Shown in pieces: positions 32,074 through 64,000 of a stretch of DNA of 64,000 bases. The notes beneath the pieces were generated by a model. The model saw nothing but the letters and a program-made list of their open reading frames with translations. It was not told the origin of the DNA and ran no database searches. Origin of the DNA: a virus; IMG/VR virus record IMGVR_UViG_3300020048_000068, positions 32,317 through 96,316 of that record; one strand, 5' to 3'. A program made the position numbers and the translations under genes. Within the stretch, counting starts at the first letter, position 1. Each line of letters begins with the position of its first letter.

Positions 32074-32142
32074 ATAGTTTTTAACCGTTTGATTATCCAA
32101 TTATTGTCTACTTTAGTCTTCATTGACTAAACTTTTAAAATT

Positions 32143-33405
32143 TTAATATGAAGATGCTGACTCCGCGACACCCCGCGAGGAAAAACCAGAATAAAGAATA
32201 AGCGGCGAACTATCCCACGAAACAGAACGCGACCCACAAACCACACCACTATCCCAAATGCCCCCAAAGCAAGGACGAGTTGGTTCATTATAATGTTGCC
32301 CTCCTACACCTGTATCGTTGGCATCAAAGGCATTTGCCCATGAAGTCGCTCCTGCAATTGCTCCTTGTTCTCTTCCCCATTGAGAGAAAACGCCGCACAT
32401 ATCTTCACAACCGATATTACTTATCATTCTACGTCCTGCTGTATCAGTATGTCCACCTGTTGTGGTCGGATTCGCAGACCCGGCGATATTTGTAGACTGA
32501 TTAGCACCCAAAGACGCGACAACAAATTCCATTGAAGCGATGGGCTTCTTACCCTGCTGTCCAAACCACTGATCCCATTTGTAAGCGTGGAATTTAACGG
32601 CTGTTGTGCCAGAAGCAATTGCGCCTCCATTAACTGAAACTACAGTTGACCCCGATACGGAAGGAAGGTAGATATCAACCCACTGATTTGTTAGTGAATA
32701 TACCATTCCTTCTACCGCAGATATAGGTCTATTCTTTAAATCCCATACCGAGCGGGGGATTATATCTCCGGCAAGATACCCTGTGAGGGTGTGTCCACTA
32801 ATTGTTCCAACAGCTACACACTCGCAATGAAATCCACCTACCTTACGAGTATTTGAAGCAGAAGGTGTTCCGCCTGATGGCATTGCTGTAGGATAGGTTG
32901 TACTGTGTGAAAGAATATAATCAGGTACAAACCCACTTATAGGAGTACAAGCATAAACATAGAAATCAAGTCCTACACGATTTGCCGCTGTAGCATAGGT
33001 TGTATTATCCCAATTACCTGTTGTACTAAGTAGTTTACTAATTGCAGTTGGATTTCTATATACTATGCCATTTATTGATAGAATTGTATCAGGAATAGTA
33101 ACTGTAATCCTATCAGCAGCTGTTGCTGAACTTGTGTAATATCCTGTTGCTACTGTATTTCCACCTTGTAACTGATTAGCTCTTTTATAATATGAAGAAT
33201 GAAATGGTGAAATACCACTGGAAACTGCATCTGGATAGGTTATAGTTCCACTAAATGTAGGACTTGCACTGAGCACAATATTCCCAGTACCTGTACTATT
33301 TACAGGAAACGAAACTGTACCTGTACCACTTACATTGATAGCAGAAATACCTTCATTAGAAACAGTACCTGAACCGTCTAAATTTGATTTAAAACTTATT
33401 GCCAT
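32143..33405 (-). CDS. Tail receptor-binding protein, Mtd-like C-type-lectin fold (DGR-target type)
   Basis: GGFHC, SVWDL, WVDIYL, GRRMISNIGCEDMCG..QW, and C-terminal FGGIWDSGVVCGSR..W..SSRGVAE. Confidence 0.8.
   Translation of the reverse strand: MAISFKSNLDGSGTVSNEGISAINVSGTGTVSFPVNSTGTGNIVLSASPTFSGTITYPDAVSSGISPFHSSYYKRANQLQGGNTVATGYYTSSATAADRITVTIPDTILSINGIVYRNPTAISKLLSTTGNWDNTTYATAANRVGLDFYVYACTPISGFVPDYILSHSTTYPTAMPSGGTPSASNTRKVGGFHCECVAVGTISGHTLTGYLAGDIIPRSVWDLKNRPISAVEGMVYSLTNQWVDIYLPSVSGSTVVSVNGGAIASGTTAVKFHAYKWDQWFGQQGKKPIASMEFVVASLGANQSTNIAGSANPTTTGGHTDTAGRRMISNIGCEDMCGVFSQWGREQGAIAGATSWANAFDANDTGVGGQHYNEPTRPCFGGIWDSGVVCGSRSVSWDSSPLILYSGFSSRGVAESASSY
32161..32280 (-). other. DGR-type variable region VR1
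   Basis: 40 codons with only 9 A in 120 nt on the coding strand, none ending in A, ~53% GC. Framework codons are A-free; putative variable codons end in T (ATT, GAT, AGT, TAT, TCT, GTT). Confidence 0.7.
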
Positions 33406-33408
33406 GTT

Positions 33409-33786: not shown

Positions 33787-33795
33787 TGTAAATCC

Positions 33796-34896: not shown

Positions 34897-34910
34897 GTAT
34901 TTTTATTGTT

Positions 34911-35977: not shown

Positions 35978-36008
35978 ATTTACTTTTCTTTATATTTATA
36001 AATCCTTT

Positions 36009-38953: not shown

Positions 38954-38970
38954 ATTATAATTAATAATTA

Positions 38971-39501: not shown

Positions 39502-39538
39502 TTTATGTTTTAATATTTAAATTTTTTAGAATTAATTA

Positions 39539-39565
39539 AAAGAGGATGTTTTATTATCCTCTTTT
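39539..39565 (-). terminator. Intrinsic terminator-like hairpin
   Basis: AAAGAGGAT-8nt-ATCCTCTTT stem directly downstream of the 341-aa gene. Confidence 0.6.
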
Positions 39566-39580
39566 ATAATTAAATTAATT

Positions 39581-40606: not shown

Positions 40607-40623
40607 TTTAAATTTTTATTGTT

Positions 40624-41424: not shown

Positions 41425-41431
41425 AAGATAT

Positions 41432-42220: not shown

Positions 42221-42283
42221 AAATATTTGTTTTAATTAATTAAATTATCTGTCTAAAGACAATTTAATATATAACATTTTCTT

Positions 42284-43441: not shown

Positions 43442-43488
43442 ATATTGTACTATTTTTAGTTATTGAAACTTACTCATAGTACAATATA
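43441..43488 (-). promoter_or_regulatory. 13-bp inverted repeat occluding the endonuclease translation start
   Basis: TATATTGTACTAT (43441-43453) / ATAGTACAATATA (43476-43488); the stem includes the A of the ATG. Confidence 0.65.
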
Positions 43489-43543
43489 CAAAATAAATAT
43501 TTAAGAACCAACTTTATTTAGTGATTAACACATATACAAGAGA

Positions 43544-44989: not shown

Positions 44990-45017
44990 GTTTTTTTTGT
45001 TTTAATTGTTCTTTTTA

Positions 45018-46184: not shown

Positions 46185-46264
46185 ATTAATTACATTTAAT
46201 TTATTAAGTTTTATACAATTTCAAAATGTATTTTTGTATCTATTTAATTTAACTTTAAATAGCA

Positions 46265-48721: not shown

Positions 48722-48754
48722 TTATATAAGTTAATATTATAGTTAATAATTAGT

Positions 48755-50851: not shown

Positions 50852-51054
50852 TAACAGGTACTATTATCTACATTAAAAATACTGTGTTCTACTTTTGTTG
50901 GAAGTTTCCATTCACTATTTGGTCCTAAAATAGGATTACCTATCATAATATAAGGATTATGTTCATCTTTGCATTCACATGGTTTATTAGCACCATTAGG
51001 TAATTCTATTTTACCTTTACCATTACAGCATATACAAGTACATTCTTTTTCCAT
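50851..51054 (-). CDS. Small Cys-rich (CxxCxGxG) protein
   Basis: CICCNGKGKI..KPCEC. Confidence 0.55.
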   Translation of the reverse strand: MEKECTCICCNGKGKIELPNGANKPCECKDEHNPYIMIGNPILGPNSEWKLPTKVEHSIFNVDNSTC

Positions 51055-51056
51055 TA

Positions 51057-51197
51057 TTATTTAGTATCTAATGTTATTAGAGGAGTTAATGTTTCTTTAT
51101 AGTTTACTTTATTAATATAATATCCTTCTAATTCCCACAACTGTTCAATTGCATTGTCATAAGCTATTTTCTTACCTATTTCAAATAGTGATGTCAT
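51057..51197 (-). pseudogene. 46-aa ORF resembling the C-terminal half of the N4 Gp49/Sf6 gp66 family
   Basis: Not in the track. MTSLFEIGKKIAYDNAIEQLWELEGYYINK...; ATGA overlap with the upstream gene. Confidence 0.55.
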
Positions 51198-51769
51198 ATA
51201 CTATCTATTTCCTCTGGTCTAATTTCAAAATGATTGATTTCTCTATTACTTCTAGTCTTATTACTTTCATATAATTCTTGTTCTACTTTCTGTTGCATAA
51301 GAGAAAGCTGTTTTAATGTATCATATGCCTTACTTGTTATTTGTGTTATATGAGAAGGTGTATATACAGGAGCACCTCTATTATCTCTTTCACTTAAATC
51401 TACATCTTCAGAGAACTTAATTAACTTCTCCACTGCTTTAACAAGTGATCTATAGAAGCGGAGGGACAAAGAACTTTCATTTTGTATTTCATCATATACA
51501 TTAGCAGCTACTTTAACAGAAGCATCAGGTATATACTTGACATCATCGAATACATGTTCACAAACTTTCCTATGACGATTAAAGGGTTCATAATTAATAA
51601 AAGGATTTGTCTTCTTAAATGAATACATAAATTCAATATAAGAAAATTCTTTAATTGCTTGTTCTTTCTTTTTACTTTTATCTCTATCCCATAATACTTT
51701 AAATGGTTTAATTAGTAATGCTTCAGTTGTTGGTATTACTATATTATTTTCTATATGAAATATGTTCAT
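51194..51769 (-). CDS. Conserved crAss-like protein upstream of the terminase (small-terminase candidate)
   Basis: LIKPFKVLWDRDKSKKKEQAIKEFSYIEF motif; position. Confidence 0.55.
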   Translation of the reverse strand: MNIFHIENNIVIPTTEALLIKPFKVLWDRDKSKKKEQAIKEFSYIEFMYSFKKTNPFINYEPFNRHRKVCEHVFDDVKYIPDASVKVAANVYDEIQNESSLSLRFYRSLVKAVEKLIKFSEDVDLSERDNRGAPVYTPSHITQITSKAYDTLKQLSLMQQKVEQELYESNKTRSNREINHFEIRPEEIDSI

Positions 51770-51993
51770 TAAAAGAAATCTGGTTTAGTAATAGCACGAG
51801 TTAATTCCATAAATCCTTTTTGTAAATCTGTTATTCCAATAGCAAGCCATCTTTTATCTACATCAGGATTTCCTGACATAGCATCAGTCATACTACCAAT
51901 AGAATTTGCCATTTCTTTTACTACATTCATTGCTGATATCTGAACTTCATCAAGTTCTTTATATCCTTTAATTTTCCTATGTTGATTATCCAT
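51769..51993 (-). CDS. acb2: Acb2-like anti-CBASS cyclic-nucleotide sponge
   Basis: MDNQHRKIKGYKEL..MNVVKE..RWLAIGITDLQKGFMELTRAITKPDFF closely matches Pseudomonas phage Acb2 as I recall it ([41 protein letters not shown]). Confidence 0.85.
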   Translation of the reverse strand: MDNQHRKIKGYKELDEVQISAMNVVKEMANSIGSMTDAMSGNPDVDKRWLAIGITDLQKGFMELTRAITKPDFF

Positions 51994-52021
51994 TATTGTT
52001 TTCTAATTCTTTAATGTCCAT

Positions 52022-52189
52022 TTATTTTAAAATTGCTTTACCAGTTTTAGGATCATAAATACAACTACGAAAATCACCATTTGTTTCTCTAAGTGCTTTC
52101 TTTATTGCTTTATCTTCTCCTTCTTTTTTAGTTAAATCTTTTTTTACTATGACTACAACTTTATTATGTTTATTTGATATTTTTTTCAT
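52022..52189 (-). CDS. Hypothetical 55-aa basic protein
   Basis: Not in the track; TAATG coupling; MKKISNKHNK..YDPKTGKAILK. Confidence 0.5.
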   Translation of the reverse strand: MKKISNKHNKVVVIVKKDLTKKEGEDKAIKKALRETNGDFRSCIYDPKTGKAILK

Positions 52190-52425
52190 TATTTAAATTT
52201 TTTATTAAGAGCATTAACCATCTCCTTATCAAATGGTACTGTTATTATTTCATTTTCAAATTCTAAATTAATATTACCTTTGTGAGTTTTATATGCGTAC
52301 CTAACATCATTAATATCAAACCAAAAAGTATCCCAAGTTTTAATTTCATCTGGTATTGGTATACCTATTTTATCAGCATATTCGATATCATCCAAATTAA
52401 TTACTACAACAGTTTTACTTATCAT
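52189..52425 (-). CDS. Hypothetical protein
   Basis: 78-aa ORF in a coupled run. Confidence 0.55.
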   Translation of the reverse strand: MISKTVVVINLDDIEYADKIGIPIPDEIKTWDTFWFDINDVRYAYKTHKGNINLEFENEIITVPFDKEMVNALNKKFK

Positions 52426-52664
52426 ACTACTTTAATTTCTCTAATTGTTCCTGAAAGTTTCTTACTAATTACTAATGAATACTTCTCAAACATCATACAA
52501 TATTTACCTAATTTAGTATCTAATTCAAGTGGTTTCTCTTTATAAAGAAACTCAAAGAATTTAGGTGATACATAAATAATAGGAAAAAGCTCTCCTTTAC
52601 CTCTACCATTATCTTTAAAATAAGTATTGAGTGTTTTTTGTACTTCTTGTGTATATGATTTCAT
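52422..52664 (-). CDS. Hypothetical protein
   Basis: 80-aa ORF in a coupled run. Confidence 0.55.
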   Translation of the reverse strand: MKSYTQEVQKTLNTYFKDNGRGKGELFPIIYVSPKFFEFLYKEKPLELDTKLGKYCMMFEKYSLVISKKLSGTIREIKVV

Positions 52665-52922
52665 TTAATCTTCTATTATTATTGTTATTCTTTTTCCTCT
52701 CTTAGTTTTTACATAAGGAACTTCATGTAAAGGTTCGTCTGCTTTGTAATCTAAATATACTGGTTCTTCTATATAATCCACAGTATCTATACGTATGGAA
52801 TTAATTTTATCATGAGGTGTACAATTTAAAGAATTAAAGAATTGATAAAGTTTTGGAAGATCCTTTCCACTTATTCTTTGATCTGGCATATAATATTTAT
52901 AATATTCTTCCATATTACACAT
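52665..52922 (-). CDS. Hypothetical protein
   Basis: 85-aa ORF in a coupled run. Confidence 0.5.
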   Translation of the reverse strand: MCNMEEYYKYYMPDQRISGKDLPKLYQFFNSLNCTPHDKINSIRIDTVDYIEEPVYLDYKADEPLHEVPYVKTKRGKRITIIIED

Positions 52923-52924
52923 GA

Positions 52925-53689
52925 TTAGAAAGTTGAAAATTGCATGTGCATATAATCATACCCTTTACATTCTCCAATATTAATAGCACCGTGTTTATTC
53001 CAAATATCCATCCAATCGGCGTACTCAGGAGTTGCAAATACAGCTTTATCTCTACCCCATTTAAGTTGATTATTTTCTGGGTTATAATCAAAAGCTATTC
53101 CGTATGAATGTGTACTTACCTCACTACCACCTCTCATTTTACGTGGTGGAGAAATGAAACCACCTCCAAATAGATCAAGACCAAGTTTATGTATTTCATC
53201 AATACCATAAGTAGATAATGTTTCTTCTAAGATAGTAGTATAAACATCACTTATCTTCTTATGACAACTTACTTTATTAACTACTTGTCTAGGATTCCAA
53301 GCAAGAATGTGTTTGAAAGGAACACTTACTGTAACTATGTTCTTACTTATATCACTCATTTTACCATAGAAAGATTCAATATTCTTATAAGATGGATATT
53401 CTGTTTTTAAATACGTTACGTTATTAGTTGTATCAGTACGAAAGTTAACAATCTTACCCGTCTTAATCTTCTCTTTAAACATATTATATGCAATATCAGT
53501 CTGTTCTCCCCATAGACCATCTACTTTACCAGCATTAAAATGCTGAGAGAGAAGAAAGGATTGTATTTGAGCAACATCTTGACGACTATTTATTATGTTT
53601 GGTATAATTGAAGGTGTATTTAACTTATTTAATTTCCAATAGTTATTGAAATAAACAACTGCTTCAAGTGCCTTTTCTTTGTAATTCAT
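52925..53689 (-). CDS. Endolysin: peptidoglycan-binding domain plus M15 peptidase
   Basis: IQSFL..GKVDGLWGEQT binding motif; R..STHSYGIAFD..DYMHMQ Zn ligands. Confidence 0.85.
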   Translation of the reverse strand: MNYKEKALEAVVYFNNYWKLNKLNTPSIIPNIINSRQDVAQIQSFLLSQHFNAGKVDGLWGEQTDIAYNMFKEKIKTGKIVNFRTDTTNNVTYLKTEYPSYKNIESFYGKMSDISKNIVTVSVPFKHILAWNPRQVVNKVSCHKKISDVYTTILEETLSTYGIDEIHKLGLDLFGGGFISPPRKMRGGSEVSTHSYGIAFDYNPENNQLKWGRDKAVFATPEYADWMDIWNKHGAINIGECKGYDYMHMQFSTF

Positions 53690-53704
53690 GTTAATTGATT
53701 TTTA

Positions 53705-53971
53705 TTAAAATTCTATTAAGAATAGTCTACTATTTATTTCTCTTAAACTTAAACACATAGTACTACCTTTTTCAATATTTTCTACAATAACAATATTTTC
53801 ATTATTAAATTGTACTACATATAATTGTTTATGTTCTGTTATTTTTTCCCACTTATCATCTTCATTATTTCTATCTAAGAGAACAAGTAAAGGATAATAA
53901 TCACTAAATTCTTTATATAAAAAAGTACCTACGGATATTTCTTTCAGTGAACGTATATACTTATAGTTCAT
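53705..53971 (-). CDS. Hypothetical protein
   Basis: 88-aa ORF. Confidence 0.5.
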   Translation of the reverse strand: MNYKYIRSLKEISVGTFLYKEFSDYYPLLVLLDRNNEDDKWEKITEHKQLYVVQFNNENIVIVENIEKGSTMCLSLREINSRLFLIEF

Positions 53972-54245
53972 TTTCGTATTTGTCTATCATTTTTATAATT
54001 CTAATATATTCTTTTTCTGGTATTACATTCTTTTCAAGGAATACATTCATATCTTTTCTTATTCTTCTTACACTTCCAGGAAACACTTTAAATGTACCTA
54101 AATTCTTTATTCTTACCTCTTCTAAATTACCTTCTTTAAATGTTTCTTTAACATTAGTAAAAAGATGTTTAGATATTTTTATGAAGTGTTCTTTAGATAA
54201 GTCTGGAAACTTGTCTTTATTTAATTCATAAAATTCATTAAGCAT
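53961..54245 (-). CDS. IHF/HU-like protein
   Basis: EEVRIKNLGTFKV histone-like motif. Confidence 0.7.
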   Translation of the reverse strand: MLNEFYELNKDKFPDLSKEHFIKISKHLFTNVKETFKEGNLEEVRIKNLGTFKVFPGSVRRIRKDMNVFLEKNVIPEKEYIRIIKMIDKYENEL

Positions 54246-54362
54246 TAGACGATATTCTCAATTTTAAATTTTATCTCAGAACTATCATTTCTTCTTTAGA
54301 TACACTTTCAATACCAAATAACTTACGTCCTATTATTTCAGCAAGTGGATGTGATGTGTTAT

Positions 54363-54716
54363 TCATTTCATTATTAATTTAATAAGATAAACTTGTTCTA
54401 TCTTACCCGGAAAAAGAATAGGTAGAAGATTAAGAACATTCTCTCTTTCCTTTAAAAATCCTTTAGTAGTAAGATTAATAATATAATTAGAAAGAGACTG
54501 ATGTGAAAGAGAAAGTTTATCTCTTACTATCTTTCTACCTGTAGTACAGAAAGGATTTTCAGCAAGTGTACCTGTGAAGGACATGAATATAGAGAGGATT
54601 TCAATTTCTTTTGGTGATAATTTAATAGGTAAAATAGGATTAATAAGTTCCATATGAACCTTATAATAAGTATCAGGTGGAAGACTTAAAGTCTTGCTTA
54701 TTGTTGTTGATGTCAT
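54363..54716 (-). CDS. Winged-helix DNA-binding protein
   Basis: LSPKEIEIL..RKIVRDKLSLSHQSLSNYIINLTTKGFL; first gene of the minus-strand module. Confidence 0.7.
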   Translation of the reverse strand: MTSTTISKTLSLPPDTYYKVHMELINPILPIKLSPKEIEILSIFMSFTGTLAENPFCTTGRKIVRDKLSLSHQSLSNYIINLTTKGFLKERENVLNLLPILFPGKIEQVYLIKLIMK

Positions 54717-54751
54717 ATATTCATATTAAAATTTACTTTGTTACATATGGT

Positions 54752-54786
54752 AATTTACAATAATAAAATTGAAATGCAAATGTTTT
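54752..54786 (-). promoter_or_regulatory. Sigma70-like promoter candidate for the minus-strand module
   Basis: AAAAACAT-TTGCAT-N16-TAAATT; a similar element lies at 56274-56309 on +. Confidence 0.35.
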
Positions 54787-54861
54787 TATAAGAATAATGT
54801 ATGTAGGATGCTTTTCTAAAATTTTTTTATAAAATTTGTGAGGAGGGTATTTCTATTATCC

Positions 54862-54885
54862 TAAAATTTTTTATAAAAAATTTTA
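54862..54885. repeat. Perfect 24-bp palindrome at the strand switch
   Basis: TAAAATTTTTTATAAAAAATTTTA; a degenerate copy sits at ~54817-54837, and both are followed by TGTGAGGA. Confidence 0.7.
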
Positions 54886-55052
54886 TAATAATTGTGTGAG
54901 GATGGATGTACCCCGTTACACACTCTCTCATTTTCAGCACTAACAACTACCCCGGGTATCATCTCAAAACACCTTTTTATTGCCACAAATATAAAACGAT
55001 TACACACTCTCTTATTCTTAGCAATTTATCTTTTAACTTAAATCATACTATC

Positions 55053-55217
55053 ATGAAAAAAACTGTTGCTAACATCAAACTCAATGGCTCACGCTTCTAT
55101 AATACACGTGAGGGTTTCAAAAGTTTCAAGACTGGTCAGATATACAGTATTGAGACAATGCGTGTTATGTGGTTGGCTTGCGCTCCTGATAAGAGACAGA
55201 TAGTCTGGAAATACTAA
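55053..55217 (+). CDS. 54-aa early protein
   Basis: Start MKKTVANIK at 55053, downstream of the repeat box; the longer track ORF runs through regulatory DNA. Confidence 0.6.
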   Translation: MKKTVANIKLNGSRFYNTREGFKSFKTGQIYSIETMRVMWLACAPDKRQIVWKY

Positions 55218-55221
55218 CACA

Positions 55222-55250
55222 ATAGGGAGAGCTGTAATGGCTCTCCTTAT
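55222..55250 (+). other. Hairpin A (12-bp stem, GTAAT loop, followed by ACCA)
   Basis: ATAGGGAGAGCT-GTAAT-GGCTCTCCTTAT. Confidence 0.7.
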
Positions 55251-55301
55251 ACCACCAAATCTAATTTCTGTATCTTCTTCTTCAACTTAAATTGTACTAT
55301 T

Positions 55302-55523
55302 ATGCCAGTATTTAAATCATTGTTTGACGAGTATGGTAATCCTGATATGTATGGAAAGGATATTAGTATGGAAATGATGTATGCTATTCGTAAAATTTTG
55401 TCTAATGCAGGAGATACTCATCCTCTTAATATCAATGAAATAGAACACATACTACATTCAGAGGTATCAGTAGCTTGTGCTGATGCAAGAATCAAAGCAC
55501 AACGTAAAATGCGTAGTATGTAA
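55302..55523 (+). CDS. Hypothetical early protein
   Basis: 73-aa ORF flanked by the twin hairpins. Confidence 0.6.
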   Translation: MPVFKSLFDEYGNPDMYGKDISMEMMYAIRKILSNAGDTHPLNINEIEHILHSEVSVACADARIKAQRKMRSM

Positions 55524-55530
55524 TTAACTA

Positions 55531-55559
55531 ATAAGAAGAGTCGTAATGGCTCTTCTTAT
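55531..55559 (+). other. Hairpin B (12-bp stem, GTAAT loop, followed by ACCA)
   Basis: ATAAGAAGAGTC-GTAAT-GGCTCTTCTTAT; covaries with hairpin A. Confidence 0.7.
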
Positions 55560-55644
55560 ACCATTAATCCAATACACTATTACACACTCTCTCATTTTCG
55601 GCAATCAATGCCATTTTCCTAAATCATTTTAAACAACAATTACC

Positions 55645-56181
55645 ATGAACATTTCATACGCTCCTGTTATTGTCGAAAAGTTTGTATCTGGCGACTTTGA
55701 AGTTGCAGGTTTCAAGACAGTTCTTCTTACACAGATGGTTACCAAGTATTACGGTGGTGAACCAAATCTTCTGTTTCCTGAAAGCCCTGTTGGCAAGCCA
55801 TACACCAGCAAGAGGACTTTCTTGATGAAGAATTTACCTGAAGCAGCAACGATTGCTATGATACAGGCTCGTGTACCCAAGACTGCAATGATTAGTGAGA
55901 CTATCTCACATAGTCCTATTATCTCCGATAACTTGCAGTACGCTATCGACAAAGGCAATACAACTGTTGATAAGATTAAGTCTCGTCAAATAGTACAAGC
56001 TGTTGACAAAGTTACTGGCGAACTTGTCATTATACTTGACAAGAAGAATCTTAAGCCAATGTACAGGCTTACAGAGTTCAACATGAGTCCAACCGAGGAC
56101 ACTGACCTGCGCACCTATACTCCGGCTGAACTGGCAGCATTTGAATTGCGTAAGGCATCAGCAGTTGAACAGGATATCTAA
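55645..56181 (+). CDS. Early protein of unknown function, probably highly expressed
   Basis: 178 aa with noticeably GC-richer codons (AAG, GAC, CTG); own repeat box upstream and GGGAGA-GCAA-TCTCCC hairpin downstream (~56198-56213). Confidence 0.75.
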   Translation: MNISYAPVIVEKFVSGDFEVAGFKTVLLTQMVTKYYGGEPNLLFPESPVGKPYTSKRTFLMKNLPEAATIAMIQARVPKTAMISETISHSPIISDNLQYAIDKGNTTVDKIKSRQIVQAVDKVTGELVIILDKKNLKPMYRLTEFNMSPTEDTDLRTYTPAELAAFELRKASAVEQDI

Positions 56182-56273
56182 CAAGGAATTAATTGATGGG
56201 GAGAGCAATCTCCCTATTAATTAACGCTATTTGATATTAATTTATTTTAGTCATTTTTATGTGTTTATTTTTC

Positions 56274-56309
56274 AAAAACACTTGCGTATGTCTGGAATTT
56301 TCTTATTTT
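56274..56309 (+). promoter_or_regulatory. Sigma70-like promoter candidate
   Basis: AAAAACAC-TTGCGT-N16-TATTTT. Confidence 0.35.
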
Positions 56310-56557
56310 TAATCTATTTGATTTAACAAATCGATAGATGACTTTGAAAATTGTAAAGAATTTCTTTCTTTTCTCTCTTTCCCCCTTTCTCTCTTTTCTT
56401 TCTTTGTAGGTTTAAAAAGTCTATTTGAGTTAAAGAAAACTTTAAGTGAAAGGGGTTAAGTTGTTTGATTATATAGACATAACCCAATCCCCCCATTATC
56501 TCCTCAATTCTAATCATCTCAATTTCCATACTTACCATAACTATAGCTTAATTTATC

Positions 56558-56848
56558 ATGAACAACAAAAGTGATTTATTAAAACACATTAAACATGTTA
56601 ACTCAACAATTAAATGTGTTATTATCAAATTCAATAATTCTGATAATAAGATTACATTACCTATTAATTTTCATACAATAATTGATAAGTATTCTGACTT
56701 CATATCAGAATTAGGTGATATGAATGACGATATTGATTATGGTACCATTTGGTTTAATAATGGTAGTTACTCAATATATAGTTATTCTGACTATGGCCAA
56801 GGATGGATTAATTATTCTATCCCTTCTATACCTACGGAACTTTTGTAG
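56558..56848 (+). CDS. Hypothetical protein
   Basis: 96 aa; GTIWFNNGSY..GW..P motif seen in small phage proteins. Confidence 0.6.
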   Translation: MNNKSDLLKHIKHVNSTIKCVIIKFNNSDNKITLPINFHTIIDKYSDFISELGDMNDDIDYGTIWFNNGSYSIYSYSDYGQGWINYSIPSIPTELL

Positions 56849-56860
56849 GTTAATTGAAAT

Positions 56861-57034
56861 TGTGGTATAGCTATCTACACTGATAATGTATGATAGAGAA
56901 ACCTCCACTGATGTCTATATCACCTATTTATCAGATAGGGTTCTAATAGGTGAGTATCATAAATACTCTCATAATAAGATTCGTCTTATTATATTTGGAT
57001 ATAGACATAAATCATTGCGTATGTAGTTTCCACA
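56861..57034 (+). ncRNA. Structured intergenic RNA (nested multi-stem)
   Basis: 11-bp perfect stem 56911-21/56998-57008 enclosing three hairpins, one with a TTCG loop; outer pairings ATGAT/ATCAT, CTACA/TGTAG, TGTGG/CCACA. Confidence 0.6.
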
Positions 57035-57137
57035 TCCTCCAATAAGGATAGCAATAAAAGCTAATACATGTATTAGCACAAAAACTACAATTGGCTCTGT
57101 AGTATTTTTATTTTTGTTTTATTAATATTATTAAATC

Positions 57138-57338
57138 ATGATTGAGTTATCAATAGTACGAACTCCTTATGCTGTAAACTGTCCTACTCATGGTTCAGTA
57201 TACATGACAAAAGATTTTTATCAAGAACAATTACATTTACCAAATAACAAATGGATTTGCCCTATATGTAAAGAAGATAGTTGGTGGGATGACAACAATT
57301 ATGAAACATTTTATGATAATATAATTTACTCTACATGA
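57138..57338 (+). CDS. Small zinc-finger protein
   Basis: CPTHG...CPIC. Confidence 0.6.
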   Translation: MIELSIVRTPYAVNCPTHGSVYMTKDFYQEQLHLPNNKWICPICKEDSWWDDNNYETFYDNIIYST

Positions 57339-57595
57339 AAAAGAAGAAATACACTAACGATAATAAATCAATATATCATCCTGATTTATCAATCGTTGCT
57401 ATCAGATTTACAGTTACTATTTACTGGTTTGAATATCTCAATATCAAACCTATTTACTTAATTCCATTCAATACTTGTAAAGATTTAAGAATAGCATTTA
57501 AGACTGATATGGAAGGTACATTTTTAACTCTTAAAAGATTACCTAATGTGGGTGATAAGACTATTTGGAATCTTTACAACTTCATAAATCAATAA
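57335..57595 (+). CDS. Hypothetical protein with C-terminal helix-hairpin-helix-like motif
   Basis: LKRLPNVGDKT. Confidence 0.5.
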   Translation: MKKKKYTNDNKSIYHPDLSIVAIRFTVTIYWFEYLNIKPIYLIPFNTCKDLRIAFKTDMEGTFLTLKRLPNVGDKTIWNLYNFINQ

Positions 57596-57596
57596 T

Positions 57597-57977
57597 ATGA
57601 AAAAAATATTCATTTCTTTTATTCTACTATTTACATTATCATACTTAAATGTAAATGGGGAGGTTCGCTATAAATTTATTAGTAAAAATAATAATATTAC
57701 ATGTTTAGTAGATTTAAACAGTATTGTAAATAATAATGTTTATAAAACAATAGACCTTTATTATAAATATGATACTCTACAATATAGTAATAATGCAAAT
57801 GATTATTATGATACACTTATTACTCGTATGTATCTAAATACTATAAATGGTAGTTATATAATCTGCCCTACAGCTTTTAGAAAGAATGGTAACATTATAT
57901 ATATCATAAAAGAACCAATACAAAGTAATCTTATAACAGATAACTTAGAATTGTTTATAACACTTACATCTTTGTAG
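57597..57977 (+). CDS. Secreted/periplasmic hypothetical protein
   Basis: MKKIFISFILLFTLSYLNVNG signal peptide. Confidence 0.6.
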   Translation: MKKIFISFILLFTLSYLNVNGEVRYKFISKNNNITCLVDLNSIVNNNVYKTIDLYYKYDTLQYSNNANDYYDTLITRMYLNTINGSYIICPTAFRKNGNIIYIIKEPIQSNLITDNLELFITLTSL

Positions 57978-57987
57978 ATAATAATTT

Positions 57988-58159
57988 AAATAGCAGTGTA
58001 GCAAGTTCTAATACTGTATGTGATATGACGGATATAATCCATATCTAACCACATATTAAATTGTTATTTCTTTAAAAAGACATAAGTTTATAAACGGTGC
58101 TTTTCATTGTTGGGTTTTACCTCGGCATCTGCGTTTGTAGGTGGACTTATGTCTTTTTA
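57988..58159 (+). ncRNA. Two adjacent structured RNA elements
   Basis: Stems 57988-97/58060-69 and 58073-88/58144-59 with nested inner helices and G-U pairs. Confidence 0.5.
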
Positions 58160-58382
58160 TTTTATAAGAGAAACTTACTATAAATATGTATAAATTAACT
58201 AATTTAAATAATACACTTATGTTCTGGCTATTAGTTAGTATTGGTCTTTATAACATAGGTAAGAATGCTCCTTATCTATATAAAGAAATGAAAGAATTGT
58301 TCAATTAAAGTTTAGTATGAGGTACTTTTAATTATTCTCACTAGAGGGGAGAATCCTTTAATTGGATAAAACGTTTTTAAAT

Positions 58383-58459
58383 ACAGGAATATTCCCTCGA
58401 TCTTATACATCGTAGAAAGGATAATTGGTCACATGTGGGTTCAAATCCCACTTCCTGTA
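58383..58459 (+). tRNA. Non-canonical D-armless tRNA-like RNA, anticodon TAT (Ile)
   Basis: Acceptor ACAGGAA/TTCCTGT; T-arm GTGGG-TTCAAAT-CCCAC; anticodon arm CGAT-CTTATAC-ATCG; no D-arm. Confidence 0.6.
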
Positions 58460-58489
58460 CAAATAACATTAACTTAAATTAAAATAATT

Positions 58490-58693
58490 ATGATATTACG
58501 TAAAACTAATTTAGGTTGGCAATTAGCATTATATGATATTATTCTACCAATGAAATTTGAAAATAAATTAACTGGGGAAATTGCAAAGACTATGAAATTA
58601 GAAGATTTACTATTTATCTATTCAGAAGTATTAAATAGCGGCAGGAAACTTATTTCAAAACTTGATTTAATAAAAGCATATAATATAAGCTAA
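58490..58693 (+). CDS. Hypothetical protein
   Basis: 67-aa ORF. Confidence 0.5.
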   Translation: MILRKTNLGWQLALYDIILPMKFENKLTGEIAKTMKLEDLLFIYSEVLNSGRKLISKLDLIKAYNIS

Positions 58694-58699
58694 TAAAAT

Positions 58700-58849
58700 A
58701 TGAATAATATAGTTAAAGCATTAATATGTACATTTATTGGGTTTGTGATACTATTTTCTAATGTAGTTATATCTAATAATATGATATATGCAGCAATTTG
58801 TTTTTCGACAAGTATTATTTTAATTGGCATGACAAAAATCCATAAATAA
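58700..58849 (+). CDS. 49-aa two-TM membrane protein
   Basis: Not in the track; MNNIVKALICTFIGFVILFS..AAICFSTSIILIGMTKIHK. Confidence 0.45.
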   Translation: MNNIVKALICTFIGFVILFSNVVISNNMIYAAICFSTSIILIGMTKIHK

Positions 58850-58903
58850 TGGAAGAACAATCTATTGATTTTAATAAGATTATAACTTTAAAATAATTAA
58901 ATA

Positions 58904-59563
58904 ATGAATAAAACATTAACTATTTCGTTAAAAGAAGCCCGAAAACTTTATTCTAATGGTGGGGAAGATATTAAAAATCTTCTCCTTAATTCGTTTACTA
59001 TAGAAGAACTCGTTTCTTTTACTCCCAAGGAGTGGAACAATTATGTAAAAGTGAGTATGGATGGTAAAATCTTCTTTATTAGTAAATACTTAGTTACACA
59101 AAAAGATTGGTATAATATCATGGGTACTAATCCAAGTCACTTTGAAGGTAATAACAAACCAGTAGAAAACGTTTCCTATAATGATATCGTGATCTTCATT
59201 AAGAAACTAAATATATTTATTGATAAAGAACAATATCGTTTGCCGACAGAAGAAGAATGGCAATATTGTGCAGAATGTGGAAGCGGAATTAAATATACTG
59301 CAAACGAAGAAAATGCTATATTTGATATTTATAATACAGAAAATGTAGGACAAAAGAAACCCAATGATTGGGGGTTATATGATATGCTTGGTAACGTATG
59401 GGAGTGGACAGATAGTTGGTATGACAGTTCGAACCGCGTGATTCGTGGCGGGAGCTGGTGCAACAATGCCGAGAACTGTCGGTCGGCTATTCGGAACAGC
59501 AACTCCCCCGACTACCGGAGCAGCAATTTTGGCTTCCGCCTTATAATGAATCCTTATTCTTAA
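58904..59563 (+). CDS. FGE-sulfatase (SUMF1)/CLec-fold protein, DGR-target type
   Basis: KYLVTQ..PVENVSY..YRLPTEEEWQY..PNDWGLYDMLGNVWEW..RVIRGGSW..CRSAIR..FGFRL. Confidence 0.9.
   Translation: MNKTLTISLKEARKLYSNGGEDIKNLLLNSFTIEELVSFTPKEWNNYVKVSMDGKIFFISKYLVTQKDWYNIMGTNPSHFEGNNKPVENVSYNDIVIFIKKLNIFIDKEQYRLPTEEEWQYCAECGSGIKYTANEENAIFDIYNTENVGQKKPNDWGLYDMLGNVWEWTDSWYDSSNRVIRGGSWCNNAENCRSAIRNSNSPDYRSSNFGFRLIMNPYS
59429..59542 (+). other. DGR-type variable region VR2
   Basis: 38 codons, 67/114 nt GC (59%) in an otherwise AT-rich gene; no codon ends in A; AAC/AAT codons alternate with AAY-derivable codons (ATT, TGC, AGC, TAC, TTT). Confidence 0.8.
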
Positions 59564-59585
59564 TTAATAATTAATTTATCTTATC

Positions 59586-59786
59586 ATGAATAATTCTTAT
59601 GAAATTAGTTACACAGGTAAATGTAAAAATGAGTATAACTTTGAAATTAAAGAGTTAACTGAAGAAGAATTATCTTCTTATATTGATTCATTAAAATTAA
59701 AAGGAGTTATTAGTATAGAAGTTTATTCTGATACAGAATTAGTTTACTTACATGGTGAATTTACTGATTATCAATTAACTGATTAA
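59586..59786 (+). CDS. Hypothetical acidic protein
   Basis: 66-aa ORF. Confidence 0.5.
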   Translation: MNNSYEISYTGKCKNEYNFEIKELTEEELSSYIDSLKLKGVISIEVYSDTELVYLHGEFTDYQLTD

Positions 59787-59941
59787 AAACATAACAATTA
59801 TATTACAAGAGAATGAAAAAATAGTATATCATCCAATTACAGGTAATATACTAATAGAATCTGATTATAGGAAGTATGAAGATTCTGATGGAACAATATT
59901 TATTAATTTAGGTAACTGTAATCAACTAATAACTAATTCCC

Positions 59942-60088
59942 ATGATGACAATTAAAGAATGTACTTGTATCCATACTTATCAAGATAAAACTCTTGGTAA
60001 GTTTAAAAGATGGATGAATGAATTATTTGGTAATAGTGGTTGGAGATGCACTGTTTGTGGAACCATTTATAAAACAGGTAAAAAATGA
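59942..60088 (+). CDS. 48-aa Zn-binding protein
   Basis: Not in the track; CTCIHTYQD...RCTVCG; ATGA overlap with the next gene. Confidence 0.6.
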   Translation: MMTIKECTCIHTYQDKTLGKFKRWMNELFGNSGWRCTVCGTIYKTGKK

Positions 60089-60399
60089 TATTTGAAATTG
60101 ATAACAATAATAAAACCTTCATTGTTGATTTTAAACATAACATAGAAGATAGAATAACCACAGGTATACTCTATTTGTATGATAAAAAAACTAAGGAAAA
60201 AGAAGAACTATTAAGAAATATAGCTTTGTGTAATGAGAAAGATCAATACAATAAGTCGCAAGGTAGAAAAGTAGTTTTAAGAAGATTACTACACAATCTT
60301 AGAGCTGATCGTTGTTTTAAAACACAAATTTGGAAACAATACTTTATACAAACAAATAAAATATATTGTACTAATAAAAAATTCAATCTATATACATGA
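60085..60399 (+). CDS. Hypothetical protein with A.C...D.Y.K..GRK motif
   Basis: IALCNEKDQYNKSQGRKVVLRRLL. Confidence 0.6.
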   Translation: MIFEIDNNNKTFIVDFKHNIEDRITTGILYLYDKKTKEKEELLRNIALCNEKDQYNKSQGRKVVLRRLLHNLRADRCFKTQIWKQYFIQTNKIYCTNKKFNLYT

Positions 60400-60668
60400 A
60401 AGATTCAGATATCACAAGTTATAATGAAAGTTGGTTACTAGAGAACAAAGACAAATATGTTTATTGTATACCTAAAGACTATCCTAAAGCCTTTCCTATT
60501 AGTCATATTTATAAACATACTGAATTAGATTTCCTTAATAGTATAACACCATTAACATTTAATGATATCAATGTTAATACCATATTAACAGATACTTTAG
60601 ATTATGAACTATGGCAGAAAACTATGAGTTATCCTTTTCAGATTGAAGAAATAGATTTTAATAATTAA
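60396..60668 (+). CDS. Hypothetical protein
   Basis: 90-aa ORF, ATGA-coupled. Confidence 0.5.
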   Translation: MKDSDITSYNESWLLENKDKYVYCIPKDYPKAFPISHIYKHTELDFLNSITPLTFNDINVNTILTDTLDYELWQKTMSYPFQIEEIDFNN

Positions 60669-60923
60669 TAACTTTTGACTTTACTTTTATGTGAATCCAG
60701 TCTCAGTCAAACTAGTACGTTGAACCAATAAACAGTATTATACTGTATTATACATATATACAGAAGATTTCAGCATTCTTACATTTACATCTCTAAAGTG
60801 AGTTATTTATGTACTCTTAGAATTATAATCTGTTCTAAGAGTACTTTATTTCTAATTATGCACCTATGCTGGAATTGGTGTATGATATATGGTATTGTAG
60901 ATATAGTAAAAGAATAAATTAAT

Positions 60924-61005
60924 GCGGGTGTGATGAAATTGGTAAACATAATGGTCTTAAAAACCATTGAGGAAACTCTTGGGGATTCGACTTCCCCCAT
61001 CCGTA
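60924..61005 (+). tRNA. tRNA-Leu(TAA)
   Basis: Acceptor GCGGGTG/CATCCGT; D-loop with GG; ATGGT-CTTAAAA-ACCAT; long variable arm; TTCGA T-loop. Confidence 0.85.
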
Positions 61006-61037
61006 CAATAACTTATTATAACATAAACTAACAACAA

Positions 61038-61826
61038 ATGAAATATAAAGAAGTTAAAGAAGCTCTTATTAATAAAGGTTTTGTTTTAGAGTGGTGTCAA
61101 TCAGCAGGTGTATTAGATGCTGTTACTTTTATTTCTCCTACATACTGTAGTGAAACAAATGATGGTATTACTATTGAGTTTGATTGTAAAGAAGAAGATT
61201 TACCAATTAACATTAGAAATCATGAAGAATTTAGTTATGATGATAAATGGATTGAAGAATTAGATGTTAAAAATATCCTTTTTAATATTGATAAAGGAAT
61301 ATCATTCGGAGTTAATGGTTGTAGCAACAATGTTCTTCTTGAATATGAATATAAGTGTAGTGGTAATTATAAAACAAATCCATCTACTTTATATTTGTTT
61401 TCTTATTTTTTAGATATCTTTACAACTGATGATTATATTCATTTCTGTAATCGATTTCTAAAAGAATATCTTATCTTCACAAATATAATTTTAAATAAAT
61501 TTAAACCTATTCTTAATAGGTTTAAATGTTCTATTCAATCTTTTAATATGATTAACAATTACGATATTGTTCCACAATATTGTGATAAAAGCATTAATTA
61601 TGTTTTCAAAAAACCATATGGAAATGTAATTTTTTATTTCGACAATGTTACTTGGAAAATGTTTTGTCAGATTCAAATTTATCCTTTAATAACAGAAGAA
61701 GAAATGGATGGAGCAACGTTTGATTTAAATTGTGATATTAACTTATTTGAAACCGAATTAAATAAACAAATTAAATTACAATTAGAACTTGAAGAAAAAT
61801 ATTATTTGAAGAAAAATATTATTTAA
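61038..61826 (+). CDS. Hypothetical protein
   Basis: 262-aa ORF, no recognised motif. Confidence 0.6.
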   Translation: MKYKEVKEALINKGFVLEWCQSAGVLDAVTFISPTYCSETNDGITIEFDCKEEDLPINIRNHEEFSYDDKWIEELDVKNILFNIDKGISFGVNGCSNNVLLEYEYKCSGNYKTNPSTLYLFSYFLDIFTTDDYIHFCNRFLKEYLIFTNIILNKFKPILNRFKCSIQSFNMINNYDIVPQYCDKSINYVFKKPYGNVIFYFDNVTWKMFCQIQIYPLITEEEMDGATFDLNCDINLFETELNKQIKLQLELEEKYYLKKNII

Positions 61827-61996
61827 ACAAAAATAATCTATAATTATATACATGTTGGTAAAATATTCTTTTCATAATAATGAAATCATGAAAAAAAAAT
61901 TAAATTGTTTAATTAAGATATTACTAAATTACAAAAGAAATTATAGATTTTGTCATAAAGATGTTAGACAATATGAATACAAATTAAATAAATATT

Positions 61997-62332
61997 ATGA
62001 ATGAATTAATTTATGACAAAACAATTAGGATTAATGATATAGTAACTTCTTATGATGATGGTTATTGGGAAGTTACTCATATCGAAATAAGAAAACCTTA
62101 TAAAAATGGAGTTTTTAAAAATATTACTCCCCCACCTCTATTGTCTGGTAATTACGTAATGACATCAAGTGGAATAATTGTTAAGCATGGAAAAACTAAT
62201 ACTTGGGATGCTTCCCATTCACAAAAAGTAACAAAAGAATGGATTATGAGTGTTTATAATAAGGAAATAGATAATGCAGCAATTAAAAGAGATAATCTTT
62301 TTCATCTTATAGGAAATAACTATGATTACTAA
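61997..62332 (+). CDS. Hypothetical protein
   Basis: 111-aa ORF. Confidence 0.55.
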   Translation: MNELIYDKTIRINDIVTSYDDGYWEVTHIEIRKPYKNGVFKNITPPPLLSGNYVMTSSGIIVKHGKTNTWDASHSQKVTKEWIMSVYNKEIDNAAIKRDNLFHLIGNNYDY

Positions 62333-62564
62333 ATTATATAAAATAGAAGACATAACTACTACTGTTAATAACGTAGATTTCTGTTTAAATGAAGACATTT
62401 ATGATGTTGTTCGCATCTACTGTGAAAATTATGGTTATAAAATAATTAGAAATCAAGAGTATATTCGTATTCCAGAAACATTATTTGTGTTACTTAACAA
62501 TGATGATATTGAAAATCCAAAAGTTTTTGAAATTAAAATAACACCACAAGAAATATTAAAATGA
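62322..62564 (+). CDS. Hypothetical protein
   Basis: 80-aa ORF, coupled. Confidence 0.5.
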   Translation: MITKLYKIEDITTTVNNVDFCLNEDIYDVVRIYCENYGYKIIRNQEYIRIPETLFVLLNNDDIENPKVFEIKITPQEILK

Positions 62565-63079
62565 ACAATCCACTAATTGACCTTATACAAACATATCAGT
62601 TACTTGATAATCTTCTTACTAATAGTGAAGGAGAAGTAACAGAAGAAATTAATAATCTATTAAATAATTTTGATGGTGATCTTAAAACTCTATTAGATAA
62701 CTATAGAGGATGGATTAGCTTTAATGAATCCCAAGCAAGCATGTATGAAGTTGAAGAAAAGCGTTTAAAAGCACGTAAAGAGGCTTGTAAAACAAGAATA
62801 GAACATGCACGTTCAGTTATTCAAGAAGCAATTGAACTCGCAGGCGAGACGAAAATTAAGACTGATAATGCAAGTTATTCATTAAGACAAACAGAGAGTT
62901 GGAAAGTTAAAGATGATATTGATAGTACAACTAAAGTAGCTATGGTTGATGCGGGTTTTGCAACCCTGGAATTTAAACCGTTCATTACTACTATTAAAGA
63001 AGCAGTAAGAAATCATACCCTTACTTGTATTCCTTCTTATATTGATATAAAAAGGAATACTTCATTAATTATAAGATAA
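62561..63079 (+). CDS. Siphovirus Gp157-like (Gam-like) coiled-coil protein
   Basis: EGEVTEE..EEKRLKARKE..KIKTDNASYSLR..SLIIR architecture. Confidence 0.75.
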   Translation: MNNPLIDLIQTYQLLDNLLTNSEGEVTEEINNLLNNFDGDLKTLLDNYRGWISFNESQASMYEVEEKRLKARKEACKTRIEHARSVIQEAIELAGETKIKTDNASYSLRQTESWKVKDDIDSTTKVAMVDAGFATLEFKPFITTIKEAVRNHTLTCIPSYIDIKRNTSLIIR

Positions 63080-63238
63080 ACAATTATGGAATAGAAATTA
63101 TTTATTATATTAATGACATTAATAAGCATTGTTTTAAATTTCGTTCGAGTCGAGGCGGGGTGAGTAGTGAAATAGTAATAAAGTAACTACATGGCCCAGC
63201 CTAATAGGAAAGCGGATTCCTTTAATAATATTTTGGTT

Positions 63239-63312
63239 TTCAGTATAGCTCAGAGGCAGAGCATTCAGGCGTAATAGTCCAGAGGTCATAGGTTCGAGTC
63301 CTATTACTGAAA
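63239..63312 (+). tRNA. tRNA-like gene with irregular anticodon arm (identity undetermined)
   Basis: Acceptor TTCAGTA/TACTGAA, D-arm GCTC/GAGC, T-arm ATAGG-TTCGAGT-CCTAT; the anticodon arm has an A-A mismatch and a ~9-nt loop. Confidence 0.6.
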
Positions 63313-63474
63313 CGAAGTTTGGTTCGATTCCAAATGGGTTACTGACATACTGGTGTGAAGGGAGTGTAGTTCGATTCTACATGATTACAGGTTTATTATG
63401 ATGATAAAATAGTAAACTAACTTAGGTGAGCTGAGTACGAGCAAGGGAGCGTTAGACCCTTCAAATTTATTTAC

Positions 63475-63581
63475 AAAAACTATTGTAATCCTAGAGGTCG
63501 CAACCAAAAGTAACATATTCAAAACACAATATGTAGGTGCACTATCATATTTGAGAATATGCAAATAGTACAATAGTTTTT
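63475..63581 (+). ncRNA. Closed multi-stem RNA element
   Basis: 13-bp closing stem AAAAACTATTGTA/TACAATAGTTTTT enclosing three hairpins. Confidence 0.5.
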
Positions 63582-63614
63582 TTATATTAAAACATTATTA
63601 AACATTAAATAATT

Positions 63615-63752
63615 ATGGAAGAAACAATTACTATTACAAAATCAGAATACGAATCTCTTTTAGAAGATTCAAATGTATTGAATTCATTGTATGCTGCTGG
63701 TGTTGATAATTGGTGTGGTTATGATGAAGCTATGAATTCAGAAGAAAATTAA
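63615..63752 (+). CDS. 45-aa small phage protein with AGVDNWxGY motif
   Basis: Not in the track; MEETITITKSEYESLLEDSNVLNSLYAAGVDNWCGYDEAMNSEEN. Confidence 0.7.
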   Translation: MEETITITKSEYESLLEDSNVLNSLYAAGVDNWCGYDEAMNSEEN

Positions 63753-63766
63753 ATTATCATTATTTT

Positions 63767-63874
63767 ATAATAAACCAAGGTAATACAGTGTAGATTTGTC
63801 TACTACAACTTAGTCACTAATATAGATGATTAAGAGAAAAGTATCTGATGACAAAGATCACCTTGGTTTATTAT
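63767..63874 (+). ncRNA. Closed four-way-junction RNA element
   Basis: 15-bp closing stem ATAATAAACCAAGGT/ACCTTGGTTTATTAT enclosing three hairpins, then a T-tract. Confidence 0.55.
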
Positions 63875-63901
63875 TTTTTTTATTAACTAAATAAATTGCC
63901 T

Positions 63902-64000
63902 ATGAAGAAATTAATACTATTAAGTTTAATATTACTAACTCCTGTAATAAGTATTGCGCAATCAGGTATTGCAAGTTATTATGGTGAACAACATCAAGGT
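63902..64000 (+). CDS. RlpA-like (DPBB) protein, 5' part
   Basis: Signal peptide followed by QSGIASYYG; truncated by the window end. Confidence 0.65.
   Translation, partial: MKKLILLSLILLTPVISIAQSGIASYYGEQHQG

Follow-up and report, generated by a model that had tools for sequence, protein, structure and literature searches.

Diversity-generating retroelements (DGRs) are usually treated as self-contained, with the reverse transcriptase (RT), the template repeat (TR) and the targets, whose variable regions (VRs) are rewritten, all travelling in one genome. Here we describe a small gene of a freshwater crAss-like, virulent-looking phage whose variable region, VR2, appears to have been templated by a DGR on another replicon, the chromosome of a green sulfur bacterium (Chlorobiaceae). 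The gene lies in a stretch of 64,000 nucleotides (the window) that comprises bases 32317-96316 of the 96,316-bp IMG/VR record IMGVR_UViG_3300020048_000068; window position 1 is therefore genome position 32317, and window coordinates are used unless marked "genome". Its 219-aa product has a single FGE-sulfatase/C-type-lectin domain, preceded by a phage-specific leader of 45 aa. The features on which the argument turns are:

58904..59563, + strand: FGE-type gene, encoding the 219-aa protein, within a block of small + strand genes and near two tRNA genes
59345..59426, + strand: coding stretch upstream of VR2 (…GNVWEWTDSWYDS), resembling host target genes and not TRs
59427..59542, + strand: VR2, variable region of 59% GC, homologous to Chlorobiaceae DGR template repeats
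59531..59542, + strand: GC-rich 3' end of VR2, GGCTTCCGCCTT, where TR homology ends in the alignment

Remote targets that are diversified in trans within one genome have been documented in Thiohalocapsa PB-PSB1 (Doré et al., bioRxiv 10.1101/2023.09.22.558884). VR2 is like these targets, and like those of the multi-target DGRs of Treponema and Legionella, in that it lies far from the RT and TR and would be recognised through its match to the TR at non-adenine sites. The targets of PB-PSB1 are likewise of the FGE-type C-type-lectin kind, and the host-side targets described below are likewise fused to NACHT/STAND, TPR and similar modules. Unlike the PB-PSB1 targets, VR2 is carried by another replicon, a phage of 28% GC, while RT and TR lie in the chromosome of the presumed host, and it lacks the 3' flank and hairpin of the host VRs.

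Self-contained phage DGRs, as well as decayed ones, are described for crAss-like phages (LMMB, Zeta, Epsilon), which often carry complete or partial cassettes (PMC7290462, PMC12386605). Like these targets and like Mtd of phage BPP-1, VR2 is a lectin-fold VR of a phage gene that appears to have been rewritten at adenines. In those phages, however, target, VR, TR and RT are found together and act on tail fibres, whereas VR2 belongs to a small non-structural protein, in a phage with neither RT nor TR, and its template family is one of bacterial chromosomes. What corresponds in this genome to the known phage DGRs is its own Mtd-like tail fibre, with a region termed VR1, whose cassette has apparently been lost.

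Treponema denticola variable protein 1 (TvpA, PDB 2Y3C) has the same FGE-subtype C-type-lectin fold with the VR at its C-terminus. TvpA, however, is a lipoprotein whose bacterium has a DGR itself, whereas the phage protein has only the 45-aa leader, in which no signal sequence was seen. DGRs of Chlorobi are listed in the survey of Roux et al. (bioRxiv 10.1101/2020.04.01.020958). With the multi-target DGRs of Chlorobiaceae the phage gene shares the VR scaffold at the DNA level and the target domain at 51-56% protein identity, but the Chlorobiaceae targets are proteins of 270-1050 aa, encoded at ~48% GC and followed by a full 3' flank and hairpin, while in the phage the domain stands alone and its DNA is AT-rich. 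In the open-access literature searched, which is itself incomplete, we found no account of a phage without RT whose VRs are templated by a host DGR, and the arrangement looks like a new, cross-replicon form of DGR targeting.

VR2 and matching template repeats in Chlorobiaceae

A sequence-only reading of the window had singled out positions 59429-59542, which code for SNRVIRGGSW...GFRL, as a GC-rich patch with sharp edges. The composition was borne out, as the patch has 58.8% GC, a value reached by only 0.06% of the 114-nt windows of the genome (mean 28.1%, sd 6.5%), and GC falls steeply after 59542; the proposed start was two bases late, since comparison with TRs places it at 59427 and the end of the homologous block at 59541/2. 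In the rest of the gene GC is 31%, with a third-position GC of 0.26 against 0.76 in the patch. Codon counts confirm that all Arg codons of the patch are CGN (6/6, versus 18% CGN genome-wide, P=3.5e-5) and that no codon ends in A (0/38, versus A at 38% of third positions genome-wide, P=1.6e-8), and thus the GC excess is due to codon choice and not to amino-acid content. The gene then returns to AT-rich DNA as had been described, with GC over 100 nt going from 0.55 to 0.18 within 100 nt past 59542 and standing at ~20% directly after GGCTTCCGCCTT.

The source of the patch was sought with sequence scaffolds. A 20-base scaffold matched 85 metagenome stretches, and ranking these by mismatches outside TR adenines brought out A-rich non-coding copies, the TRs, on freshwater contigs of ~48% GC that also hold several FGE targets, an HRDC gene and NACHT/STAND fusions. 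A 29-base scaffold, run against one genome for each of 185,579 species, matched 84 stretches, 83 of them in Chlorobiaceae/Chlorobium metagenome-assembled genomes (MAGs) and one in a Thermoguttaceae MAG; the same scaffold had no match in 2.9 million IMG/VR viral contigs. Two other patch patterns run against the viral contigs gave, respectively, no match and 10 chance matches of ~30% identity.

The Chlorobiaceae TRs are identical to the patch at 100-101 of 114 positions; the mismatches number 9-11 at TR adenines and 3-4 at other bases. In the best of them, on contig 118 of MAG E-4_bin-046 (G001:C118), 100/114 positions are identical and the mismatches affect 11 of its 34 adenines and 3 of its 80 other bases (Fisher p=8e-5). 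This TR starts where the open reading frame (ORF) of an RT ends, and the RT, which scores 56.8 bits against RVT_1 at 17419-17928, carries the DGR-type motifs IGNLTSQ and YMDD. The target on the same contig is a 630-aa protein with TPR and FGE domains, in whose VR the only differences from the TR are at 21 adenines. An HRDC-like ORF lies between this target and the RT, so that the DGR of this locus is complete. The sequence-only reading had proposed looking for a TR that lies beside an RT in a host chromosome and differs from the patch only at TR adenines; such a TR was found in Chlorobiaceae, although the restriction to adenines is incomplete, holding for 11 of the 14 mismatches.

The three exceptions, at 59437, 59467 and 59542, are synonymous third positions that vary among the 30 distinct TRs sampled, whose median pairwise difference is 12. 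Every base of the patch is either the base of some sampled TR variant or stands at a TR adenine, and of 78 bona fide host VRs, 65 have 0-3 mismatches outside adenines when compared with their nearest sampled TR. Because the host VRs have this same range of mismatches and the exceptions vary among TRs, VR2 looks, from these alignments, like the VR of an unsampled member of the Chlorobiaceae TR family. The Cys codon TGC at 59459-59461 is aligned with an AAC codon in the TR and is therefore a variable position.

In the Chlorobiaceae the cassette order is target gene with VR, HRDC-type accessory gene, RT and TR, and the host targets are multidomain proteins in which the same domain ends TPR, NACHT/STAND or zinc-ribbon proteins. 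Three loci from Chlorobiaceae and lake metagenome contigs (L048, L090 and L191) each hold several FGE targets (TPR-, zinc-ribbon- and NACHT/STAND-fused) and an HRDC accessory gene, with HEPN and ParE genes nearby; all host VRs of this TR family carry GGTTTTCGTCCCGTAG and the hairpin described next.

The edges of VR2 were compared with those of host VRs. All BLAST alignments to TRs start at 59427 and stop at 59539-59542. At the 5' edge, homology between phage and TR starts at the same base where homology between host VR and TR starts, and just upstream there is a 6-nt indel between phage and host genes. With host target genes the alignment reaches back to 59345 (72-81% overall), while with TRs it begins only at 59427; the stretch 59345..59426 is old, ameliorated sequence. 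At the 3' edge only the GC-rich GGCTTCCGCCT is common to phage and TR, with unrelated AT-rich DNA beyond, whereas in the hosts the identity between VR and TR extends over another 17 nt (GGTTTTCGTCCCGTAG), after which the host VRs have a conserved hairpin, AGTTGGC-N7-GCCGACT. Since TR homology stops there, 59531..59542 is likely to be the 3' junction of the sequence transfer, resembling an initiation of mutagenic homing (IMH) site.

These edges also bear on an account without any cDNA, in which the 3' part of the gene was swapped by recombination, once or a few times, with the diversified VR of a host target or with TR DNA. The resemblance of the 82 nt upstream of VR2 to host targets and the loss of the hosts' 3' recognition flank and hairpin would suit such a swap, and a copied host VR would likewise show adenine-restricted differences to the TR. 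We nevertheless consider it unlikely, as the homology steps exactly at the 5' end of the TR, with the 6-nt indel against host genes just upstream, and there is zero homology past 59542 for a second crossover. Moreover, the phage allele has no counterpart among the host VRs, with 21 differences to the nearest.

The patch is also of a different age from the gene that holds it. Outside the VR the phage domain has 48-54% protein identity to the host targets and third positions are 44-48% identical, whereas inside the VR third positions are 84% identical to host genes. Thus the patch is far younger than the gene and was written after the gene had diverged and ameliorated.

Among 5.8 billion proteins the phage protein has a single close relative, P0002 (217 aa, an NCBI record), which shares the phage-specific leader and is 78% identical outside the VR and 50% identical inside it. 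The differences within the VR fall at 17/19 codons that have a TR adenine at position 1 or 2 and at 2/19 other codons (p=8e-7, at the protein level). A comparison of VR alleles among related phages had been suggested in the sequence-only reading, and at the level of protein this one fits DGR diversification. P0002 itself was found neither in the loci retrieved nor in 122 Chlorobiaceae genomes, with a best identity of 56% in the latter. An FGE gene is absent from 14 crAss-like genomes with 60-65% identity in the major capsid protein, which argues that the FGE-type gene is a lineage-specific gain.

The same comparisons make it very improbable that the patch is an artefact or a matter of chance, that is, a chimeric assembly of Chlorobiaceae reads or a composition forced by amino acids. 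Host and phage would share samples, and the motif RGGSW..CRS..R..GFR is conserved across the family. The patch is, however, in frame and unlike any host VR, it has phage sequence on both sides within one ORF, and an identical protein is recorded from three sources; P0002, an independent record, has the same architecture, and the GC excess lies, as shown by the codon counts, in codon choice.

In the protein, Pfam PF03781 covers residues 38-214 (E 1.3e-32), and the nearest solved structure by sequence is TvpA (2Y3C; E 1.8e-20, residues 101-217, with the VR covered). VR2 thus falls at the C-terminus of a domain of the C-type-lectin/FGE fold, the position seen in DGR targets. The top full-domain relatives are Chlorobium/Chlorobiaceae proteins of 51-56% identity. 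A scan of the viral contigs with the protein found no relative, a DNA search of GenBank phages with the gene found no match, and no sulfatase gene was seen among its neighbours in the ORF list of the window. To judge from its sequence, the protein is probably a small, cytoplasmic-looking intracellular binder that consists of a sensor domain alone.

Reverse transcriptase, template and a second variable region

The sequence-only reading had stated that neither TR nor RT is present in the 64 kb, and had named a matching TR and RT elsewhere in the phage as what would overturn it. The absence extends to the whole 96,316-bp record, in which an RT was looked for in four ways: 1) a Pfam RVT_1 search of all six frames, read through stops, gave no candidate; 2) a motif scan for YxDD and the DGR-RT motif [LIVMP]GxxxSQ gave nothing; 3) in genome 1-32 kb, none of the 24 ORFs with 150 aa or more was identified as an RT by Pfam or PHROG; and 4) the host DGR RT used as query gave nothing at E<=10. 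Adenine-aware ungapped scans of the genome found no TR for VR2 or for two other VR-like patches. A recoded or hidden phage RT is ruled out by the empty six-frame searches through stops, and the GC-rich patches of the phage are ruled out as TRs for one another, as they share no similarity.

An ordinary DGR of a phage or satellite, derived from Chlorobiaceae, could nevertheless have had its RT and TRs in a part of the genome that was not assembled, or have lost them recently and left relic VRs. The record is linear and without terminal repeats, another assembly carrying the same protein is 566 bp longer, and VR1 of the tail fibre does look like such a relic. Incomplete DGR cassettes are moreover common in crAss-like phages, occurring in 66/91 genus I genomes in one study (PMC7290462). 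A missing piece of the genome is, however, unlikely, because CheckV gives a completeness of 100%, neither contig end cuts an ORF, and the record is longer than those complete relatives that have terminal repeats (85-93 kb). Furthermore, two different GC-rich TRs and the RT would all have to fit in the gap, the TR families are otherwise found only in Chlorobiaceae chromosomes with none in the 2.9 million viral contigs, and the 14 related crAss-like genomes have no FGE gene. A phage-borne source is therefore improbable.

The reference to two TRs concerns a second gene of the phage, which lies outside the window and also carries a GC-rich patch:

genome 4984-5721 (locus L002): Lcl_C/DUF1566 gene, with a VR at ~5176-5306 in a GC-rich patch

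This patch has DNA matches in 75/101 Chlorobiaceae genomes at E<=1, the best of 76-82% identity with E down to 1.8e-28, and its scaffold has no match among the viral contigs. Compared with its best TR (G093:C123), the VR has 27 mismatches at adenines and 9 others over 111 nt (p=1.6e-6). The TR family is different from that of VR2, and both families occur together in single Chlorobiaceae genomes (for example G002, G089 and G093). Here too the homology between VR and TR stops abruptly at the 3' side. The Lcl_C ORF has no stop after the VR and continues into a C-terminal part of ~135 aa that is common to two related proteins, P0122 and P0123. In a relative with ~52% identity outside the VR the allele is a different one, whose differences are enriched at codons with TR adenines (p=0.017). 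For recombination without cDNA this means that two unrelated genes of the phage would each need the same precise replacement, as would the lineages of P0002 and P0123, although the stability of the Lcl_C VR between close relatives, to which we return below, would be in keeping with it.

Proposed templating across replicons

We propose, as the most economical reading, that VR2 was templated by a Chlorobiaceae chromosomal DGR and not by a DGR of the phage, through cross-replicon homing in trans, and we give this a probability of roughly 0.6; cDNA from such a DGR would likewise have replaced the VR of the Lcl_C gene. It is preferred because the 5' edge is set by the TR, the 3' edge is IMH-like, the mismatches are biased to adenines, the patch is young, and the pattern is repeated in two genes and in related phages. 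The suggestion in the sequence-only reading that a host DGR may act in trans on the phage is supported to this extent, by the match to a Chlorobiaceae TR and RT, the adenine bias and a phage that has neither. The host would probably be a member of the Chlorobiaceae, an assignment made from the VRs alone.

A possible course of events is as follows. An ancestral crAss-like phage would have taken over an FGE-type lectin domain from one of the proteins targeted by the DGR of its host, and the captured gene would have drifted to an AT-rich, phage-like composition. In a cell where a DGR of that family is active during phage replication, the host RT would copy the TR RNA into adenine-mutagenised cDNA, some of which would replace the homologous 116 bases of the phage gene, with the 5' junction set by the end of the TR and the 3' junction lying in the GC-rich GGCTTCCGCCT. 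Each such event would reset the patch to host-like GC-rich codons and give the phage protein a new binding surface. Transfer may thus take place straight into phage DNA during infection and may still be ongoing.

Several results weigh against this proposal. None of the 30 TR variants reaches zero non-adenine mismatches to the patch, the best having 3, and VR2 is changed at 11/34 TR adenines compared with a mean of 17 in host VRs. The IMH-type 3' elements, the hosts' next 17 nt and the hairpin, are absent from the phage, and its 3' flank folds no better than shuffled sequences (z -1.9, an AT-only stem) and forms no stable hairpin. In Bordetella phage BPP-1, 3' elements of the flank and hairpin type are needed for efficient homing; canonical homing at VR2, which is without the 17-nt extension and hairpin, may therefore be inefficient. 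Between the phage and a relative with 88% identity outside the VR, the Lcl_C VR differs by a single residue, and the keeping of this allele suggests that rewriting is infrequent and seemingly episodic, not constant. The linear record without terminal repeats leaves room for a missing 2-3 kb. A search for spacer-type matches between window positions 36001-56000 and 122 Chlorobiaceae genomes gave hits at chance level only (E of at least 5e-4, 81-90% identity over 30-50 nt), and in window positions 44001-64000 only the VR region matched Chlorobiaceae, with two candidates scored per genome, so that spacers may be missed. Finally, the nearest cultured relatives by TerL (47% identity) are Flavobacterium phages, which gives no independent link to a Chlorobiaceae host.

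As to function, it is plausible that the phage protein is a mimic of host DGR-diversified proteins, because the host targets end in the same domain on TPR, NACHT/STAND and zinc-ribbon proteins. A more specific version, which we regard as rather doubtful, is that the FGE and Lcl_C genes are pared-down host sensor domains, kept homologous to the TRs so that host cDNA rewrites them during infection, and that their products act as soluble decoys or blockers in competition with the host's own diversified NACHT/TPR "antigen sensor" proteins, or as binders of other host factors. The phage encodes a Sak4-like annealing protein (Pfam and PHROG scans), and we raise, purely as an idea, that it might install host cDNA at the replication fork and so make the hairpin and flank unnecessary.

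If cross-replicon homing does occur, DGR cDNA acts across replicons, which bears on how targets are recognised, as VR2 lacks the usual 3' elements. Phages would gain hypervariable proteins without an RT, and surveys based on RT genes would miss all such cases. Cellular DGR targets that have been proposed as immune sensors would have viral look-alikes made from the same TR, and the sensor hypothesis would become directly testable; were the phage proteins decoys, this would be counter-defence evolving at the rate of the defence and in the same sequence space. The VR/TR match would moreover be a new kind of phage-host link, pointing here to Chlorobiaceae for a freshwater crAss-like phage. The FGE-domain genes of lytic Microcystis phages hint at a wider pattern. 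These phages have 1-4 FGE-sulfatase-domain genes each, of 41-48% identity to the 219-aa protein and annotated as "kinase"; examples are in NC_008562.1 (28232-28744, Ma-LMM01), KF356199.1, MN013189.1 and others.

The phage genome and its other patches

Crassvirales head, portal and terminase families are present in the phage (phrog_11589, phrog_6547 and phrog_6681, all E<=1e-140), as is an ORF of 4125 aa, a candidate for the giant virion RNA polymerase expected of the order. After Flavobacterium phage FpV4, the next matches of TerL are to Bacteroides phages and crAssphage. The first 32 kb of the genome hold replication genes, a ribonucleotide reductase, Thy1 and several homing endonucleases (Pfam and PHROG scans).

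The second variable region within the window belongs to the tail fibre:

32143..33405, - strand: Mtd-like tail-fibre gene (mtd_2nd, E 6.6e-12) with VR1, an adenine-poor 3' end at ~32143-32300

VR1 has no match in 101 Chlorobiaceae genomes, and no TR for it was found in the phage genome. IMG/VR homologues of the tail fibre (L212 and L216, 68% identity) have an adjoining RT, but the TR of homologues of this type does not fit VR1, with 33 non-adenine mismatches. VR1 is thus probably a separate, phage-type DGR target whose cassette has decayed or been lost, and stands outside the host-templated pair formed by VR2 and the Lcl_C VR. The lack of DNA similarity between the patch and VR1, from which the sequence-only reading had concluded that two different templates were at work, is upheld, since VR2 shows no similarity to VR1 or to the other GC-rich VR-like patches of the genome. 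A second host-type VR does exist, but it is the one in the Lcl_C gene outside the window, and VR1 appears instead to be a phage-type remnant.

One more GC-rich patch, of 53% GC, lies at genome 16481-16714 (L002) within a small ORF ending in CxxC...CxxC. Its codons show no DGR-like pattern, and a search of 122 Chlorobiaceae genomes found nothing that matches it.

The tail module at 32135-34900 has a GC content of 45-64%, far above that of the rest of the genome, and may have been acquired from elsewhere; it includes, at 33796-34896 on the - strand, a glycine-rich protein of 366 aa with PF21722. A 717-aa tail-fibre gene contains at least 10 copies of a 30-nt periodic repeat at 37519-37894 (- strand), which encode decapeptide repeats of the type ...DRLYTSI.... 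The two tRNA genes near the FGE-type gene, both on the + strand and amid small early-type genes, are tRNA-Leu(TAA) at 60924-61006 and tRNA-Ile(AAT) at 63239-63313.

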